From assembly GCA_965220775.1 (NCBI GenBank), contig OZ244845.1, positions 1,683,034-1,747,033 of the forward strand: a stretch of DNA of 64,000 nt, in the 5' to 3' direction. The notes under the pieces were generated by a model, which saw only the letters and a program-made list of their open reading frames with translations, ran no database searches and was not told the DNA's origin. Source of the DNA: Chloroflexota bacterium (lineage in GTDB: Bacteria > Chloroflexota > UBA6077 > FW602-bin22 > JBCLEL01). A program made the position numbers and the translations under genes. Every line of letters starts with the position of its first letter. Within the stretch, counting starts at the first letter, position 1. Positions 8,040 through 61,640 of this stretch are shown piece by piece.

Positions 8040-8680
8040 AGGTTCCCGCCATTCGCTGCGTCATACCTTTCCCCCACGCGGTCTTTGGTACGAAAATGGT
8101 GTTACGCGGCCTCAAGTACGCCTGAATGCCACCGGCCCCCGCTTCGTCATTCCGGCCCCCCTCTTCGTCATTCCGGCGATCGAAAGCATGCCCCGTACCC
8201 CGATACGGGGCCGGAATCCAGAGGGGAGGGGTGGCACCTATGACACCCAAAGACCTCCAACGACCAAGCGTCATTTTCATACCTTGGTGTGCCGGCGGCA
8301 TCCGGCATGAGCGATTGGTAGGGGAATGAATTCCGGCACCGGCCGGCGACACCAACCGCCGTCGCCCGAACAACGACAGCCCAGGGCCCCAAGAGAAATG
8401 TAGCGCTGGGGCTTGTCCCCAGCTCAGGGCGCGACGGCAGTTCGCCCCCGTTGCACTGCCCACCGCCGTCCCATTTTCATCCCCTTATGTGGCCTTCGCA
8501 AGGCCATAGGTGATTCCGGCGAAAGCATGCCCTGTACCCCGATACGGGGCCGGAATCCAGAAGGGGAGGGGAGAGACAAGACCGCCATACGACAGTAAGA
8601 GACCCGGCGTCCCAGCATTCTCATCCTCTTATGTGGCCTTCGCGAGGCCGTGGTGAACGCCGGCAAAAATCCGGACACGA
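8040..8680. repeat. intergenic cluster of short palindromic modules (cluster R2)
   Basis: Carries these modules: cgtcattccggc; gcatgCCCCGTAccccgaTACGGGGccggaatccag (twice); ttttcataccttggtgtgccggcggcatccggcatgagcgattg; tgtagcGCTGGGGcttgtCCCCAGC; and attttcatcc(c/t)cttatgTGGCCTTcgcAAGGCCA (twice). Confidence 0.85.
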
Positions 8681-13882: not shown

Positions 13883-13909
13883 TCAGGGCGATTCACGACC
13901 TTACTTGAA

Positions 13910-13937
13910 GGGAGACGCTGCGAGTCTCCCTTTTTTT
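13910..13937 (+). terminator. rho-independent terminator after clpC
   Basis: GGGAGAC-gctgcga-GTCTCCC followed by TTTTTTT, 28 bp after the clpC stop. Confidence 0.75.
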
Positions 13938-13958
13938 CTGCCCATAAGGCGCAAATTG

Positions 13959-15341
13959 ATGGCCAATGGTCGACCCAAGCGACGTATCATCTACGTCTGC
14001 CGGCAGTGCGAAGCGCAGGCTCCCCAATGGCTCGGGCGATGCCCCGAATGCGGCGAATGGAACACACTGTTGGAGACCCCCGAGCCGCGACCGCCGGCTC
14101 CCGGCCCGTTAGCGACGAATAGGTCGGGCTCCACTCCTGTTGCGCTGGACGACGTTATCTTGCAGGACACGCCCCGCATCAGCACGTCTATTGCCGAACT
14201 CGACCGAGTGCTAGGGGGCGGTATCGTACATGGCTCGGTCATACTGCTAGGCGGTGATCCCGGTATTGGCAAGTCCACGCTCGCTTTGCAGGTAGCTGCG
14301 GGAATGGCAGGTCGAGATCAACCGATTCTTTACGTTTCCGGGGAAGAATCGACTGGTCAGATCGTGATGCGCGCCCAGAGAGTTGCTTCCACCAACACCA
14401 ACATTCTCGCTCTCTCCGAAACCTCCCTGGACCAATTGGTCCCACAGATAAGGCAGATCCGGCCTGCGCTCTTGATAATAGACTCGATCCAAGCGGTGTA
14501 CTTGGAAAGCCTGTCCGCGGCCGCTGGAAGTACAGGCCAGGTGAGAGAGTGTGCAATGGCGTTGCTTCGCTTAGCCAAGGAGTCGGTCATACCGACGATC
14601 ATCATCGGGCACGTAACTAAAGAGGGAGCCATAGCCGGGCCTCGCGCGTTAGAGCACATAGTGGACGTCGTGCTTTATCTGGAGGGCGAACGATTTCATA
14701 GCTATAGGCTATTGCGTGGTGTGAAAAACCGCTTCGGTTCGACGAACGAGGTTGGCGTTTTCGAAATGCTAGGTGATGGTCTCAAAGAAGTTAAGAATCC
14801 CTCACATGTTTTCCTTGCGGAGCGCCCTGCGGGCGCGGCCGGATCTACGGTTGCCGTGACTGTCGAGGGTACTCGTCCAATGCTGGTTGAGGTTCAGGCG
14901 CTGGCGACCTACAGCCCCCTCACGATTCCTCGTCGCACCGTCAACGGTGCCGACATGAATCGATTGCAGCTAATCATTGCGGTGTTGACGAAACGAGTGG
15001 GGCTTGGCCTGGTCAATCAGGATATCTACGTGAACGTAGTCGGTGGACTGCATGTTGAGGAGCCGGCTGCCGATCTTGCGGTAGCACTGGCAATCGCTTC
15101 GAGCTTCCGCGACCGACCGGTCGCCGGCGATTTGGTCGCGATTGGAGAAGTCGGTCTCGCCGGCGAGTTGAGAAGGGTCTCCCACTTGGAGCGGCGGCTC
15201 ACCGAGGCGTCGAAACTTGGCTTCACTCGATGCATCCTTCCAAGTGGGGCCGCGAGTGGATTGCCGGCACCGGCGAATTTGAACCTCCTGAGGTGCGCAA
15301 CGTTGGCTGAGGCGTTGGAGGCGGCGTGGCAGATCGTTTGA
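13959..15341 (+). CDS. radA: DNA repair protein RadA/Sms
   Basis: N-terminal zinc ribbon (CRQCEAQAPQWLGRCPECGEW), GDPGIGKST Walker A, KNRFG motif and a Lon-like C-terminus. The ATG at 13959 is chosen because the longer ORF (13905) overlaps the clpC terminator. Confidence 0.93.
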   Translation: MANGRPKRRIIYVCRQCEAQAPQWLGRCPECGEWNTLLETPEPRPPAPGPLATNRSGSTPVALDDVILQDTPRISTSIAELDRVLGGGIVHGSVILLGGDPGIGKSTLALQVAAGMAGRDQPILYVSGEESTGQIVMRAQRVASTNTNILALSETSLDQLVPQIRQIRPALLIIDSIQAVYLESLSAAAGSTGQVRECAMALLRLAKESVIPTIIIGHVTKEGAIAGPRALEHIVDVVLYLEGERFHSYRLLRGVKNRFGSTNEVGVFEMLGDGLKEVKNPSHVFLAERPAGAAGSTVAVTVEGTRPMLVEVQALATYSPLTIPRRTVNGADMNRLQLIIAVLTKRVGLGLVNQDIYVNVVGGLHVEEPAADLAVALAIASSFRDRPVAGDLVAIGEVGLAGELRRVSHLERRLTEASKLGFTRCILPSGAASGLPAPANLNLLRCATLAEALEAAWQIV

Positions 15342-16018
15342 ACGCGGACCTTACTGCGGTCATTCTAGCGGCCGGCCAGAGTCGGCGATTGGGCAGCGAC
15401 AAGTTGCTCTTGCCCATAGCGAAACGCCCTGTCATAGCTTGGACTCTCGACGCTTTCTCACGCAGCCACCTCGTGAGCCGGATTGTACTGGTCATATCCG
15501 AACGTAATCGCCGATTCTGCTCGGACCTGTTAGAACAAATGGGAATTGTTGACCGGACAGACCTAGTTGTTGGTGGGAATCGCCGGCAAGATTCCGCTCG
15601 GACCGGCCTTTTGGCTGCCAGAACCGAATGGATAGCGGTACACGATGGTGCCCGCCCCTTCACCAGTGGAGACCTAATTGAGCGAGGATTCCAGGCTGCT
15701 CAGTCTACCGGCGCTGCCGTACCCTGCCTGCCAGTAACCGACACTGTCAAACGGGTAGATTGCCAGGGTAGAGTCGTCGAGACTCTCAAGCGGTCCGAAT
15801 TGGTGTCGGTCCAGACGCCGCAGTTCTTTCGTCGGGATCTCTTGCTCGCCGCGGTTATGTCCGCCGGCGACGACGTGACCGACGATAGCTCATTGGTCGA
15901 AGCGATGGGTTCGCGAGTCCAAACGTTCAGGGGCGAGCCGTCAAACATCAAGATCACCAAGACAGAAGATATTAAACTGGCCGAAATGAGCGCCGCTGAA
16001 GCGTTGGTCCGGCGATGA
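15326..16018 (+). CDS. ispD: 2-C-methyl-D-erythritol 4-phosphate cytidylyltransferase
   Basis: 230-aa ORF with an AVILAAGQSRRLG motif. Overlaps radA by 16 bp and ispF by 4 bp. Confidence 0.9.
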   Translation: MADRLNADLTAVILAAGQSRRLGSDKLLLPIAKRPVIAWTLDAFSRSHLVSRIVLVISERNRRFCSDLLEQMGIVDRTDLVVGGNRRQDSARTGLLAARTEWIAVHDGARPFTSGDLIERGFQAAQSTGAAVPCLPVTDTVKRVDCQGRVVETLKRSELVSVQTPQFFRRDLLLAAVMSAGDDVTDDSSLVEAMGSRVQTFRGEPSNIKITKTEDIKLAEMSAAEALVRR

Positions 16019-16515
16019 GGGTAGGGATAGGTAACGACATTCACCGACTGATTGCCGGCCCCACGCTCGTCTTAGGCGGTGTCGACGTGCCATTCGACAA
16101 GGGGCCCGCGGCCCATTCTGATGGTGACGTCGCGATTCACGCCTTGATTGATGCGTTCTTGGGAGCCGCCGGCCTCGGAGACATCGGCACGCATTTCCCG
16201 GACAGCGAACCGCGTTATCGCGGGGCTTCGAGCATCGACCTGCTGCGACGCTGCATCGGGCTGCTGGGTGAGGCTGAATTCCGGCCCCACAATGTTGACA
16301 TTTCGATATTGATTGAACGGCCCCGGCTGGCGCCCTACCTGGGCCTGATGGTCGAGCGAATCGCCGCCGTGCTGGAATTGCCGGCAAATCGAGTCAATAT
16401 CAAGGTCGGAACAAACGAAGGTATGGACGCGATAGGTCGCGGAGAAGCAGTTGCCGCCCTGGCTGTCGTCACCGTGCTCGGAGGAGAAACCCAATTCGAA
16501 GATTCATCTACCTGA
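16015..16515 (+). CDS. ispF: 2-C-methyl-D-erythritol 2,4-cyclodiphosphate synthase
   Basis: 166-aa ORF with IspF signatures: RVGIGNDIHRL, HSDGDVAIHALIDAFLGA, GDIGTHFP. Confidence 0.92.
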   Translation: MRVGIGNDIHRLIAGPTLVLGGVDVPFDKGPAAHSDGDVAIHALIDAFLGAAGLGDIGTHFPDSEPRYRGASSIDLLRRCIGLLGEAEFRPHNVDISILIERPRLAPYLGLMVERIAAVLELPANRVNIKVGTNEGMDAIGRGEAVAALAVVTVLGGETQFEDSST

Positions 16516-16586: not shown

Positions 16587-17567
16587 TTAGCGAGGATCTC
16601 GCGACAGTATGCCGGCGCGAGCCATTGATTCTTCTACCCCGGACCCAGGTCGTCCGTTGCCCAATTGGTCGACGATTGGCCGTATGCGTCCATCACCTAC
16701 TCTGAGCCAATGCATCAACATTGCAAAGTCTACGCGTCGTTGGAGATCATCTCGCATAGGGGCAATTGCTTCGATCAACGCTTGCCGAGTCCCGTAACGC
16801 CATTTGTCCAGAGTCTGGTTCGAGTAGGCGCCGGCTGATATCGCCGGGGCGGCGTGGCGCGACAACCCGTATTGCTCTGCGATTGCTCCGGCAGAGCTCC
16901 TGAGCGCGCTGGACGACAGTCGAGTGAAATCGCTGCCTAGGGGCAGCCATCCAACCATTGCGGAAAATGACTGATTGGGTGGTGAACTCAGTAGAAGATC
17001 TAAGTCGGAACGGCCGTTGTCGCCCCGAGGCGCGACCATGAACCTCGCCAACCGAAAAAGTTGGCCCAGTTCCCGGTCGCGGTCTTGGTAATATCGCGGA
17101 TCCAAGATCTGCACGATCTTGTCGAAGCCTACCAGGAAAGTGAGCCCGCCAAGCTTGGGAAACGCTTTTCGGTAGGCGATTGCTTGATCCAGGTACAGAC
17201 CAAGATTTGTTACAGCTACCGAGACTCTTTGATGGGCCCGCCCAAGGCTTGTTAATGACACTAACCGGTCTACAAGACTGGCGCCTTGTTGCTCTGTCTT
17301 GTCTATTGTGTGGACGGCAATCGAGACTACTGCCTCGTCACACTGGACGGTGCCTAGCGCCTGCTCGATAATTGCTTCGTGGGCAATCGTCAAGGGATTG
17401 AACGAGCCGGCAAACACCGCCATCCGGCAGCCCGGCGCGGTGATACCGGGCGCTACGTAGATTGGCCTGAGAGTTGGTGCGGCGCTCTGCCTCAGTTGGG
17501 CCACGCTGTGCCGAATGGAAAGTGCCAGATCGAGATCGTCGAACGCCGCGAATCCCGGTGAATTCAA
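16587..17567 (-). CDS. cytidylyltransferase-like / NMN(NaMN) adenylyltransferase-family protein with a long C-terminal extension
   Basis: 326-aa ORF. FAGSFNPLTIAHEAII resembles the GxFxPxHxGH nucleotidyltransferase motif, with TIAH in place of HxGH. Confidence 0.6.
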   Translation of the reverse strand: MNSPGFAAFDDLDLALSIRHSVAQLRQSAAPTLRPIYVAPGITAPGCRMAVFAGSFNPLTIAHEAIIEQALGTVQCDEAVVSIAVHTIDKTEQQGASLVDRLVSLTSLGRAHQRVSVAVTNLGLYLDQAIAYRKAFPKLGGLTFLVGFDKIVQILDPRYYQDRDRELGQLFRLARFMVAPRGDNGRSDLDLLLSSPPNQSFSAMVGWLPLGSDFTRLSSSALRSSAGAIAEQYGLSRHAAPAISAGAYSNQTLDKWRYGTRQALIEAIAPMRDDLQRRVDFAMLMHWLRVGDGRIRPIVDQLGNGRPGSGVEESMARAGILSRDPR

Positions 17568-17613
17568 GCCAATCCGCTTGCCGGATCAGGTGAAAATCCT
17601 GAGACTGGTGACC

Positions 17614-17871
17614 TCAGACCGCCGCCTGGACCTTTTCTTCCACCTGGTCGGTTATCTCTTTGAGGTCAGGGAATCTGCCAGTGTCCCACTTCGAGTGTAT
17701 TTGCTCGCCGTCCACTGAGACCTCGAAGGCTCCGTTGAGACCGCCAATCAGCTTAACTGAGCCCACTTGACCCTTGAACTTAGTCATGATCTCGGCCGCC
17801 GTCCAGGCGGCCCGCAGCTGATAGTTTCAAGGTACGCAGTAGATTATTTCCATATGGAACGTATTATCCAT
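17614..17871 (-). CDS. SelW/Rdx-family selenoprotein (in-frame TGA = selenocysteine in a CxxU motif)
   Basis: Manual translation gives MDNTFHMEIIYCVP[TGA]NYQLRAAWTAAEIMTKFKGQVGSVKLIGGLNGAFEVSVDGEQIHSKWDTGRFPDLKEITDQVEEKVQAAV*. The TGA is at 17829-17827. A GGAGGAG RBS lies 4-5 nt upstream of the ATG. Rdx-family hallmarks are present: YCxxU, RAAW, FEVxVDGExI, GxFP. The gene is absent from the ORF track because of the TGA. Confidence 0.8.
17794..17812 (-). promoter_or_regulatory. candidate bacterial SECIS hairpin
   Basis: In the mRNA, UGA-aacuaucagcugcg-GGCCGCC-UGGAC-GGCGGCC. This is a 7-bp all-GC stem with a 5-nt loop, starting 14 nt after the UGA. Confidence 0.5.
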
Positions 17872-17984
17872 GTCACTCCTCCATTTGGCTTTGTGGGCTG
17901 AATCGGCACGCGTCCTTCCGCCCGCCAATCCATGTCCTATTTCTCTCTGTGCCTATTGTAGCCGATCCGGACGAATGGTACAGC

Positions 17985-18365
17985 ACACCCAAATCTCATA
18001 CCGTCGTGCGCCCGCGGCAACCGGCCTCCCATTCGTCATTCCCGCGGCGGTTGGAATCCACGCACCATCCTTCCGCGAAAGAACGTCAATCGCGATACCA
18101 CCACTTGCCCCCCAACGTAACGCCAGAAATCGGCCCCACGGTCGGTCATCCCGGCCAAAACATTCCCCCATATCGGCCCCCCCATACCCCGATACGGCGC
18201 CGGAATCCAGGGGAGGCGAGGGTCGACCCTGTAGCGCCGGGGCTTGTCCCCAGCCATGGACAAGCCGGCCATCCAACCGGTCAACCGCGCCGCCCATCTC
18301 GTCATTCCCGTGCAGCCATGTCCCGTACCCCGACACAGGGCCGGAATCCACCGGCCGGCGCTAAC
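17985..18365. repeat. intergenic cluster of short palindromic modules (cluster R3)
   Basis: Degenerate copies of cgtcattcccgcggcggttggaatcc, ccccgatacggcgccggaatccagggga, tgtagcgccggggcttgtccccagc and catgtcccgtaccccgacacagggccggaatcc. Confidence 0.8.
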
Positions 18366-18478
18366 CGTCTTCAAATCCCTGTGCGCGGAAGCGCCCTATA
18401 ATATATTTGTGGCTCGCACTATTCGATTGTATGACGAGCATTGCAGCGACGGGCGAATCCACCTAAAAGGAGTGAGAC

Positions 18479-18880
18479 GTGCATCCGATACCGATTGGTA
18501 CGCGAGGCAAAGCCAGTGAGACCGTGAGCGAGCAAAAGACCGCGAGCGCCGTCGCCAGCGGAGCGGTTCCAACATTCGCCACGCCGGCGATGATTGCTCT
18601 GATGGAGCGGGCATCGGTGAACGCCATTCGGCGTTTCTTGGACGAAGGGCAAGACAGCGTGGGAACGCTAGTCAACGTGACGCATCTGGCCCCTACGCCG
18701 GTAGGATGTAGGGTGCAAGCGGAGGCCGAGGTCACCGCAGTAGATGGCAGAAAAATCATGTTCAAGGTTTGTGCGTCTGACCCAATCGAGTTGATCGGAG
18801 AGGGCACACACGAGAGAGTGCTTGTGGATCGAGCAAAGTTTATTTCGAAGGCAGCGACCAAAGGCCGCGGCCTCGGTTAG
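18479..18880 (+). CDS. hotdog-fold thioesterase family protein
   Basis: 133-aa ORF. VPTFATPAMIALMERA and a VGTLVNVTHLAPTPVG core are typical of small hotdog thioesterases. AAGGAG RBS before the GTG start. Confidence 0.7.
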   Translation: MHPIPIGTRGKASETVSEQKTASAVASGAVPTFATPAMIALMERASVNAIRRFLDEGQDSVGTLVNVTHLAPTPVGCRVQAEAEVTAVDGRKIMFKVCASDPIELIGEGTHERVLVDRAKFISKAATKGRGLG

Positions 18881-18888
18881 ATTCTCGT

Positions 18889-20184
18889 ATGCCTAGTTCA
18901 ACCGAGCTGATTACCCTGGCGCGGCAGCGCTTGAACGCGGGTGATGTCGAGTACGTTGCCCAATGCTGTCGCATCATTCTGAATCATTTGCCGGCCCATA
19001 TACCCGCGCACCTGTTGCTCGCGGAGTGTCTGTCAAGTATCGACGAATATGGGCAGGCCAAGGACCTGTCGCAGAGGGTACTCAGCTCTGTACCGGACAA
19101 CCTCCGGGCTCTTCGTACGCTAGGGTCCGCGATTGTTGAAACCGACGGACTTGGTGCCGCCGAATATGTGTATCAGATCGCGTTCGATAATCACTCGTTC
19201 CATCCCGAGCTACCCGGCGAAATCGAAGATGTCTTGGGAAAGCGACTCACCCTATCGAATATAGGATTGGCTCGACTTAGCCTGAACTCAGGCCAATTCT
19301 TGGACGCCGCCGGGGCGCTCAATCGGGCACTCGCGGTCGATCCGCGGCGCTTGGATGCCCGGGCGCTTCTGGCACTTGCCTATCATCGCGTCGGTGATCG
19401 CTCATCTTCCGAAGCCGTGTGCAAGGATTTGCTTAATGACGCTCCGGATTGTCTGCCCGCCTTGGCAATACTTTTGCACCATCTTATTCTCGACGGTTCC
19501 GGCTCGAATGAGGCGGAGCAGATAGTCTCGCATATTGCTGCCCGTGATCCATCCTACCTGTACGTCAGGGAAATCTTGCCGGCGGAGATCCTGTCTCAGC
19601 TGCCTCGATCGGACATCGAGATCGACCTCTCTTCGGACGACTCGACCGATTCTCATCCATCTCCGCAACTCGAGAACGACGTCCCCAGAGGCTCCGATGG
19701 CGGGGAAACCGATGCCTGGATGTCCAAGATGATCCGCCCGTCGAACGCCGGCGAAACCGCTGCCGGCGTTCCTCCGGCCAATGCTCGATCAGACGAACCC
19801 AATCCGGCTCCGCATACGTCCCCGGCGAGTTCCGAGCGTCCGGGCATCCCGGGGATGTATCTGAAGGTGGCCGCGAAAGCTGATGAACAAGTGACCGGCT
19901 TGACGACGGAAGCAATGCGGCAACATATGGACAAGGCGTTGCGATTCCAGCAGAGCGACAAGTTTGACGAGGCCGTTTCGGAGTACGCCGCGATCTTGCG
20001 CTCGGACCCATCGCTGGCAGGTGAGATAGTAGATAACCTGCGATGGATCGTGTACGCTAAGCCCAATCACATCGCCGCTTTGAAGACGTTGGGAGACGCC
20101 TACATGAGAGTTGGTGATGTCGAAAAGGCGGTCGAGCAATACGATCGCGTGATGAGTCTCCGCGGATCAGGCAGCCGCAATTGA
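18889..20184 (+). CDS. tetratricopeptide-repeat protein
   Basis: 431-aa ORF. TPR-like helical repeats at both ends flank an acidic, Pro-rich low-complexity middle. Confidence 0.7.
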   Translation: MPSSTELITLARQRLNAGDVEYVAQCCRIILNHLPAHIPAHLLLAECLSSIDEYGQAKDLSQRVLSSVPDNLRALRTLGSAIVETDGLGAAEYVYQIAFDNHSFHPELPGEIEDVLGKRLTLSNIGLARLSLNSGQFLDAAGALNRALAVDPRRLDARALLALAYHRVGDRSSSEAVCKDLLNDAPDCLPALAILLHHLILDGSGSNEAEQIVSHIAARDPSYLYVREILPAEILSQLPRSDIEIDLSSDDSTDSHPSPQLENDVPRGSDGGETDAWMSKMIRPSNAGETAAGVPPANARSDEPNPAPHTSPASSERPGIPGMYLKVAAKADEQVTGLTTEAMRQHMDKALRFQQSDKFDEAVSEYAAILRSDPSLAGEIVDNLRWIVYAKPNHIAALKTLGDAYMRVGDVEKAVEQYDRVMSLRGSGSRN

Positions 20185-43673: not shown

Positions 43674-44488
43674 CAGGGGTTTTTGATTCTCTAACATCCG
43701 TTGTCACCCAAAGGTTGGCGGTGGTCTTGCCTTCCCCCTCCCCTCTGGATTGCGGCCCCGTATCGGAGTACGGGGCATGCTTTTGATCGCCGGAATGACG
43801 AGGGGATGCCGCGAATGACCAATGAGAGGCTACTGGAGCGGTCTATCCCGGATCGTAGTCCGGGACATGCTTTCATAGCAATCGCTCATCCCGGCTGGGG
43901 CCGGCACACCAAGGTATGAAAATCGGGTGCATTGGGTGGTGGGAGAGTTCTAGCGTCATTGCCACAACCCGCACCTCCCCTCTGGATTCCCGCCTTCGCG
44001 GGAATGACGATTGGGGGGCCGGATTGACGAGGGGATGCCGCGAATGACCAATGAGAGGCTACTGGAGCGGTCTATCCCGGATCGTAGTCCGGGACATGCT
44101 TTCATAGCAATCGCTCATGCCGGCTGGCGCCGGCACACCAAGGTGTGAAAATCGGGTGCATTGGTTGGTGGGAGAGTTCTAGTGTCATTGCCACAACCCG
44201 CACCTCCCCTCTGGATTCCCGCCTTCGCGGGAATGACGAAGGGGGGGGTGCGGGAATGACGAATTGAGGGGCCGGAATGACGAGATCGCGGAATGGAGGG
44301 GTTCAACGGCGCGCTCGAAAGCGGCGTAGGCGCATCCCGGATCGGAGTCCGGGACATGCTTTCGTACGAATGACGAGATGCGGTTTCGGACTATCGAAAT
44401 GGCATTGGTGGGTTGACTGTTTCGACCAACTGCTTGTCGGCCTAGGAAAATACTCTAGAGGTCCTAAACATTAAAGAATAGAAAAGCC
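43674..44488. repeat. composite repeat element, short copy (cluster R8)
   Basis: Same 5' terminus (caggggtttttgattctctaacatccgtt) and 3' terminus (...aaagaatagaaaagcc) as 39522..41153, but only 2-3 internal units. Confidence 0.9.
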
Positions 44489-60894: not shown

Positions 60895-61640
60895 GGTGCG
60901 CCGGCCGCCCCTCCCCTGGATTCCCGCCCCGTATCGGGGTACGGGGCATGCTGTTGATCGCGGGAATCACCATGGCCTTGCGAAGGCCGCATAAGCCGCA
61001 TAAGAGGATGAAAATTGGCAACGCGAGTTAGGGGACTCATCCATCCCGGATCGGAGTCCGGGACATGCTTTCATAGCAATCGCTCATGCCGGCTGCCGCC
61101 GGCACACCAAAGTATGAAAACCCGGAGTTGTGATTTGGTACAGCGAATTGGCACGGCGGATTCTGCTACGCCCCACCCCGACCCCTGCGGGGGACAAGCC
61201 CTCGCGCTACATTTTCTCATTCCGGCATCGACCATCGGTCTACAATTCGGCAGGTTTCGCCGGTGGAGAGCCGGCATCGAGGTTGATTGGAGGGCACATC
61301 CCGGATCGGAGTCCGGGACATGCTTTCGTACCAATCGCTCATGCCGGCGGGCGCCGGCACACCAAGGTATGAAAAGCCGGAGTTGCGGCTTGGTACAGCG
61401 AATTGCCATGGCGGATTCTGCCATGCCCCACCCCGACCCCTGCGGGGGACAAGCCCCCGCGCTACATTCTCTCATTCCGGCATCGGCCATCGGTCTACAA
61501 TTCGGCAGGTTTCGCCGGTGGAGAGCCGGCATCGAGGTTGATTGGAGGGCACATCCCGGATCGGGGTCCGGGACATGCTTTCGTACCAATGACGAGAGTG
61601 GGGATCTATTCTCGTACCAATGACACTCACGAGACTGGTC
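60895..61640. repeat. intergenic cluster of palindromic modules (cluster R9), about 3 tandem units of 245-265 bp
   Basis: The anchor atcccggatcggagtccggg occurs at 61043 and 61308, with a variant (atcccggatcggggtccggg) at 61553. Units match 40.5-40.8 kb and, inverted, 24.96-25.2 kb. Preceded by ccccgtatcggggtacgggg and tggccttgcgaaggcc modules. Confidence 0.9.

Follow-up and report, generated by a model that had tools for sequence, protein, structure and literature searches.

SelW-like selenoproteins with a CxxU redox motif have been described in bacteria since 2004-2005, and are abundant and well established (PMC1088965, PMC2398784). Carrying the SECIS element within their own ORF, they were among the earliest prokaryotic selenoproteins to be found computationally, and they are covered by the surveys of the prokaryotic selenoproteome (PMC1088965, PMC1794560, PMC2398784). 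Their selenocysteine (Sec) forms outnumber the cysteine (Cys) forms (PMC1088965, PMC2398784); in the GOS set, where SelW-like proteins are the most abundant selenoproteins, 427 Sec forms stand against 56 Cys forms (PMC2398784). The same Pfam family holds the mammalian selenoprotein W, SelT, SelH, SelV and Rdx12, with CxxU at the same structural position, and also a set of Cys-containing bacterial Rdx proteins of solved structure. A further described group is the SelT/W/H selenoprotein of Campylobacterota, represented by the NCBIfam equivalog NF041051 (SelTWH_Campy).

The locus analysed here holds a gene of a familiar type, from the well-known SelW/Rdx family, and its host is new. It lies in the window, that is, the whole 64-kb stretch of DNA under analysis, which comes from an uncultured soil Chloroflexota bacterium, unlike the first-described examples, which were marine, deltaproteobacterial or clostridial. 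As in the known bacterial SelW-like selenoproteins, it encodes a single domain of about 80-90 residues with an N-terminal CxxU whose Sec would be specified by an in-frame UGA, followed just downstream, within the coding region, by a SECIS-type hairpin with a G in its small apical loop. In this it differs from the eukaryotic SECIS, which lies in the 3' UTR and is built around a kink-turn core; the element in the window sits within the ORF and is a plain hairpin, as is usual in bacteria. Like its known counterparts, which are routinely truncated or missed by annotation, the gene has been shortened in public data. It belongs to a sub-clade marked by the motif GEQI(Y/H)SK, also found in Acidobacteriota and Planctomycetota and, unlike known bacterial SelW-like genes, has a divergent nucleotidyltransferase gene for a partner. 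The elements of the gene are as follows:

17614..17871, minus strand: SelW-like/Rdx coding sequence (85 codons and a terminal TGA) in which the UGA at codon 15 is predicted to be read as selenocysteine
17876..17882, minus strand: Shine-Dalgarno-like GGAGGAG, 4 nt 5' of the ATG at 17871, read directly
17827..17838, minus strand: CxxU redox motif, consisting of Cys12 (TGC 17838-17836), Val, Pro and the putative Sec15 (TGA 17829-17827)
17794..17812, minus strand: SECIS-type hairpin GGCCGCC-UGGAC-GGCGGCC, with a 7-bp stem and a 5-nt loop that has G at position 2
17614..17787, minus strand: 57-residue product of the public gene calls, starting at an internal ATG (Met29); the catalogued proteins P0001-P0007 are all 57 aa long

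Translation of 17871..17614 on the minus strand yields MDNTFHMEIIYCVP up to the internal TGA at 17829-17827 and NYQLRAAWTAAEIMTKFKGQVGSVKLIGGLNGAFEVSVDGEQIHSKWDTGRFPDLKEITDQVEEKVQAAV after it, with 70 sense codons between this triplet and the gene's own stop, the TGA at 17616-17614. This confirms the claim of a preliminary description of the locus that an 85-residue protein is contiguous only if the first TGA is decoded. The strong ribosome-binding site that it placed before the ATG is present at 17882-17876, and GGAGGAG is kept in the close relatives L001-L024, where the most distant member, L023, has GGAGAG. Standard ORF finding splits the locus into a 33-residue piece running up to the first TGA and a 57-residue ORF from the ATG at 17787, and all the genes called in L001-L024 begin at the equivalent internal ATG. 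The resulting 57-residue product, devoid of strand beta-1 and of the redox motif, is a truncation artefact. Every element that the preliminary description had listed is found where it had been located, but the gene was not strictly "unannotated", since public data do call the locus, as the 57-residue product from ATG 17787.

Membership of the Rdx/SelW family, also part of that description, is borne out by two profiles above their curated cut-offs. When Cys is put at the TGA, the full reading scores 80.6 bits against Pfam Rdx (PF10262; cut-off 22.6, E = 9.6e-23) and covers profile positions 2-73 of 74. The 57-residue tail that follows the TGA scores 43.6 bits by itself against the same cut-off, which leaves about 37 bits to the 14 codons ahead of the TGA. 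The second profile, TIGR02174 (CXXU_selWTH), gives 63.6 bits for a cut-off of 34.2, over positions 1-73 of 74. By E-value, the best NCBIfam match is NF041051 (4.6e-19), which has the same domain and length as the window protein; its 68.4 bits are under the 88-bit equivalog cut-off, and the gene is therefore not placed in that subfamily.

Six Cys-containing bacterial Rdx structures (2fa8, 2obk, 2oka, 2ojl, 2p0g and 3dex) align to residues 7-80 with E-values from 8.6e-14 to 7e-09, the best being 2fa8 (Agrobacterium Atu0228, E = 8.6e-14), and the NMR structure 2ljk (Rdx family, C17orf37) matches the protein with E = 2.9e-06. The Cys proteins share with it the pattern YCxxC...LRA.W...G.FE(V/I)..DG...(S/W)...GRFP; they differ in having CTQC where the window gene has its UGA, a C terminus longer by about 20 residues, and no need for a SECIS. 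In the three best alignments, followed residue by residue (2fa8, 2obk and 2oka), the CtqC motif falls on C12-V-P-TGA15. Full-length Cys relatives, retrieved by searching exhaustively with HMMER and the 57-residue tail as query, show the same register, with CVPC, CHEC, CSAC or CTQC opposite C-V-P-TGA; among them is P0134 (EYCVPCNYLPRATW / 'IDIEYCVPCNYLPRATWVAQEIL'), whose second Cys is aligned with the TGA. Since both the Cys structures and the full-length Cys relatives align their CxxC there, the TGA stands exactly at the second redox position. The preliminary description had put it at that position, and had named an alignment of homologues with the TGA off the CxxC/U motif as the result that would speak against it; the two coincide. 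By homology to the solved Rdx structures over residues 7-80, the 85-residue protein is predicted to adopt a thioredoxin-like alpha/beta fold.

One entry of the representative protein library, P0154, is recorded as 'MSQLTIEYCVQWNYEPRAAG...' ('EYCVQWNYEP'), with a W at the Sec/second-Cys position. The codon behind this W is most likely a TGA, which a pipeline set to a different code table would have rendered as Trp.

The hairpin begins 14 nt after the UGA, with its arms at 17812-17806 and 17800-17794 and its loop at 17805-17801, which gives a UGA-to-loop distance of 21 nt. It is present in the minimum-free-energy fold (-27.3 kcal/mol over 66 nt, z = -3.0), and only 1 of 200 shuffles folds as well. 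Under the consensus published for bacterial SECIS elements (PMC13188914), the apical loop has 3-9 nt and the upper stem 4-16 bp, a G occurs within the first two positions of the loop, 16-37 nt separate the UGA from the loop, and the free energy does not exceed -7.5 kcal/mol. Scored with a strict re-implementation of these rules that takes a contiguous stem, the hairpin of the window agrees with all of them (UGGAC loop, 7-bp stem, 21 nt, -14.8 kcal/mol). The window holds 1850 TGA trinucleotides, 119 of which (6.4%) are followed by a rule-conforming hairpin and 9 (0.5%) by one this stable. A hairpin at the place expected for a bacterial SECIS, as the preliminary description had noticed and for which it had proposed bSECISearch or an equivalent, is therefore supported by its position, by the published rules and by the predicted fold. 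At gathering thresholds, no Rfam SECIS family matches the window, nor does any match positions 17600-17900 up to E = 10, where the only matches, two on the opposite strand, are at chance level and involve no SECIS family. This weighs little, because bacterial SECIS elements are described in the literature as having no conserved features.

When one genome for each GTDB species was scanned, 33 related loci emerged; their hosts are Chloroflexota, Anaerolineales, Planctomycetota and many Acidobacteriota. The hairpin recurs at the same distance from the UGA in 32 of them, although its sequence varies by lineage: in Acidobacteriota it reads GAGGC-CGUGA-GCCUC, and Planctomycetota have GCCGUC-type stems. 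The strict contiguous-stem test is passed by 13 of 37 loci, a number that is low because many of the 5-bp acidobacterial stems, when scored alone, fall just short of -7.5 kcal/mol.

Because the hairpin sits inside a conserved peptide motif (RAAWTAAE in the window gene), it could be a by-product of coding, and this was tested on synonymous sites and on Cys forms. Across 24 acidobacterial genes, codon entropy drops to 0 where the stem encodes Glu-Ala-Val (GAG GCC GTG); the Ala codon just outside the stem reaches 1.76 bits, and four-fold codons elsewhere 1-2 bits. Similarly, codons 22-27 (GCC TGG ACG GCG GCC GAG) are invariant in 11 distinct Chloroflexota sequences, where the sole change in the stem is a GCC to GCT that turns a G-C pair into a G-U pair. 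The upper helix of the acidobacterial hairpin is paired in 98.4% of cells and shows five wobble-compatible changes and one compensatory change; its covariation cannot be told from that of shuffles, the variation being too small. In view of this weak covariation, the case for RNA constraint rests on the conservation of synonymous sites and on two Cys-form controls. The first control is L058, a JGI metagenome contig with tandem SelW-like paralogues at 306-554 and about 570-818, a Cys copy (CVPC) followed by a Sec-type copy (CVP-TGA). In the latter, CCGCC-UGGAU-GGCGG is found with identical spacing (-19.1 kcal/mol, z = -2.4); the former, at -11.7 kcal/mol and z = -0.7, folds no better than shuffles. 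The second is the Cys form L059, where RAAWWAAE is written in other codons and the equivalent place carries no hairpin. With synonymous sites frozen in two lineages and these two controls, the hairpin is under RNA-level constraint beyond the needs of the protein.

Two further observations concern these loci. The acidobacterial loci L032-L057 contain a candidate lower stem, GACAUC ... GAUAUC (alignment A2, columns 7-12 with 40-45), which flanks the hairpin. Its pairing is complete in L034 and L043 and stands at 73% overall, with two compensatory pairs, and it is not significant against controls. Moreover, the Sec-type copy of L058 has been shortened to 59 residues by the gene caller.

Taken from the sequence evidence, the UGA at codon 15 very probably encodes selenocysteine. 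The intact gene, 17871..17614 on the minus strand, would then give rise to an 85-residue thioredoxin-fold SelW/Rdx protein. On arrival of the ribosome at the UGA, the complex of SelB, GTP and Sec-tRNA(Sec) would bind the hairpin, which lies 14 nt further 3', and would deliver Sec in competition with release factor 2, so recoding codon 15. The product would have its redox centre, Cys12-x-x-Sec15, where strand beta-1 meets helix alpha-1 and, judging from its family, would act as a thiol-dependent oxidoreductase cycling between the selenol/thiol and the selenenylsulfide states.

The machinery for such decoding may be expected elsewhere in the genome. Neither the 64-kb window nor some 600 kb of sequence from related loci yielded a tRNA-Sec, selA, selB or selD in searches with tblastn, ARAGORN and Rfam, the tblastn queries being approximate E. 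coli SelA, SelB and SelD sequences (the SelA query is 95-100% identical to the E. coli entries of the database). In a genome of about 3.7 Mb, this absence from the window is uninformative. A protein-database search with E. coli SelA returned 8000 matches, of which the best 120 are all from Enterobacteriaceae. That the organism carries the machinery is inferred from the conserved UGA and hairpin and from reports at the level of the phylum, as some members of Chloroflexi and Acidobacteria are known to carry selenoproteins (PMC1794560; PMC13326102). No second selenoprotein was found in the window: among the TGA-bridged ORFs outside the long ORFs, only the SelW-like locus combines a CxxU with a hairpin that follows the SECIS rules.

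With the machinery itself putative, the UGA could also be translated otherwise than as Sec, through near-cognate suppression or with Cys or Trp inserted, if the lineage had lost SelA, SelB or SelC. The W of P0154 could be read in the same sense, though it is most likely a translation choice of the pipeline. Such a lineage would nevertheless maintain a SelB-type hairpin at the right distance from the UGA, conserved and synonymously constrained in every lineage, which would be pointless in the absence of SelB, and it would depart from the documented norm of the SelW-like family, which is the Sec form. This explanation is accordingly improbable.

Slightly less probable still is that the TGA is a real stop, so that the locus would produce only a 14-residue leader peptide or the 57-residue fragment from ATG 17787, or would be a pseudogene arisen by a TGC/TGT-to-TGA change. 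It agrees with every public gene call, all of them for the 57-residue product, with the use of TGA as a normal stop codon in this genome and with a Sec machinery that is putative. The conservation of the triplet argues otherwise. An identical or near-identical gene, TGA included, occurs on more than 18 contigs assembled independently from metagenomes, so the TGA is not a sequencing error. A related locus on OZ253568.1, the chromosome of a 3.71-Mb Chloroflexota MAG, is 99% identical. Of the 33 related loci, 32 have C-x-x-TGA between open frames, at identities down to about 40%, with the motif reading CVP, CTS, CAV, CTA, CAM, CFF or CFI before the TGA; these 32 keep the beta-strand-like segment upstream of the TGA as well as the rest of the domain downstream. 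As the TGA is conserved in 32 loci of three or four phyla, it cannot be explained as a recent nonsense mutation.

Other features of the gene likewise stand against a real stop. The 57-residue fragment would not have strand beta-1 or the redox motif, which correspond to Rdx profile positions 1-24, and the upstream codons, besides fitting the family profile, stay in frame across relatives. Among the 11 distinct close (Chloroflexota) sequences, all 11 keep the TGA, and the changes in the 14 codons upstream of it are synonymous or conservative, with F5, E8, I9, Y11, C12 and P14 invariant. The position equivalent to Met29 is not Met in Acidobacteriota, and therefore there is no conserved internal start from which the fragment could be made. 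Finally, the synonymous sites are frozen exactly at the hairpin.

The sole exception among the 33 loci, L052, is a fragment. At 831-947, in the same MAG as L050, it is a second, partial SelW-like copy without a recognisable N terminus or CxxU, and could represent either a pseudogene or a piece altered by the assembly.

An alternative genetic code with TGA as a sense codon for Trp or Gly, for which nothing speaks besides the in-frame TGA itself, is ruled out for practical purposes because TGA ends 15 of the 42 long ORFs in the window, most of these 15 with full-length Pfam matches, and in addition the SelW-like gene itself, in DNA of 52-61% G+C with normal ORF lengths under table 11.

The gene has the following neighbours:

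16587..17567, minus strand: 326-residue divergent nucleotidyltransferase (NadD/CoaD-like), downstream and co-oriented, 46 nt after the SelW-like stop
13905-16515, plus strand: radA, ispD and ispF, beyond the nucleotidyltransferase gene, on the opposite strand
about 17950-18400: interspersed repeat cluster, upstream of the SelW-like gene
18479-18880, plus strand: FlK-type thioesterase gene, further upstream, on the opposite strand
18889-20184, plus strand: TPR protein gene, further upstream, on the opposite strand

The nucleotidyltransferase matches Pfam CTP_transf_like with 22.5 bits and TIGR00482 with 29.9 bits, the latter below cut-off; the match is limited to its N-terminal part, and the specific NadD/CoaD models are all below their cut-offs. 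It evolves faster than its neighbours, with 92% identity against their 93-99% in L025 and 69% against 76-88% for the well-aligned ones in L026. No terminator-like site was found between this gene and the SelW-like gene, and the two are probably co-transcribed. Their pairing is kept in the close Chloroflexota relatives only and is absent in the other phyla, which makes it weak evidence for a functional link.

The repeat cluster upstream of the SelW-like gene belongs to a family with the core CCGATACGG(G/C)GCCGGAATCCA, present in 6 copies in the window for 0.01 expected by chance (8200-8220, 8539-8559, 18189-18209, 18330-18350, and, on the minus strand, 43746-43766 and 60917-60937). The family is clustered, and one of its clusters lies just upstream of the SelW-like gene. 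Related pseudo-ORF motifs extend across about 39.5-44.3 kb, with the recurring read-through translations 'GWRRHTKV*KSG' and 'LVCRRQPA*AIG'. In relatives, ORFs of 112 and 165 residues have been called over the repeat cluster (L011 997-1335 and L014 939-1436); they have no Pfam match and are probably spurious.

The treatment of the locus in protein catalogues deserves separate mention. One of the 57-aa relatives, P0002, has been labelled by JGI as "selT/selW/selH-like putative selenoprotein". Besides its own cluster, 66 nearest representative clusters were considered, of which about 42 look similarly truncated and about 10 are full-length Cys forms. The 90%-identity clusters of the stubs P0002 and P0005 each hold one unrelated long protein: P0196, a multi-pass membrane protein of 381 aa, and P0197, of 463 aa. 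A fusion of the SelW-like stub in P0196 and P0197 was considered and rejected, as these are unrelated proteins brought in by an artefact of the catalogue clustering. With all public calls for the locus and its relatives being stubs without the active site, the locus provides one more concrete case of a known annotation failure, the systematic loss of selenoproteins from MAG-derived catalogues.

A more far-reaching proposal, which at present should be regarded as speculative and rather unlikely, is that the GEQI(Y/H)SK sub-clade is essentially Sec-obligate and widespread in soil Chloroflexota, Acidobacteriota and Planctomycetota, and that the Chloroflexota gene perhaps forms an operon with the fast-evolving NadD/CoaD-like nucleotidyltransferase. 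If the sub-clade were indeed Sec-obligate, its full-length protein would be almost wholly missing from a catalogue of 5.8 billion sequences. The operon, if real, would give a hint of a selenol-dependent step, so far undescribed, in the metabolism of nucleotide cofactors or in its redox control. The locus leaves the knowledge of SelW-like proteins and of Sec decoding unchanged; what it implies is that a soil Chloroflexota lineage, together with many soil Acidobacteriota and Planctomycetota, decodes Sec and needs selenium.
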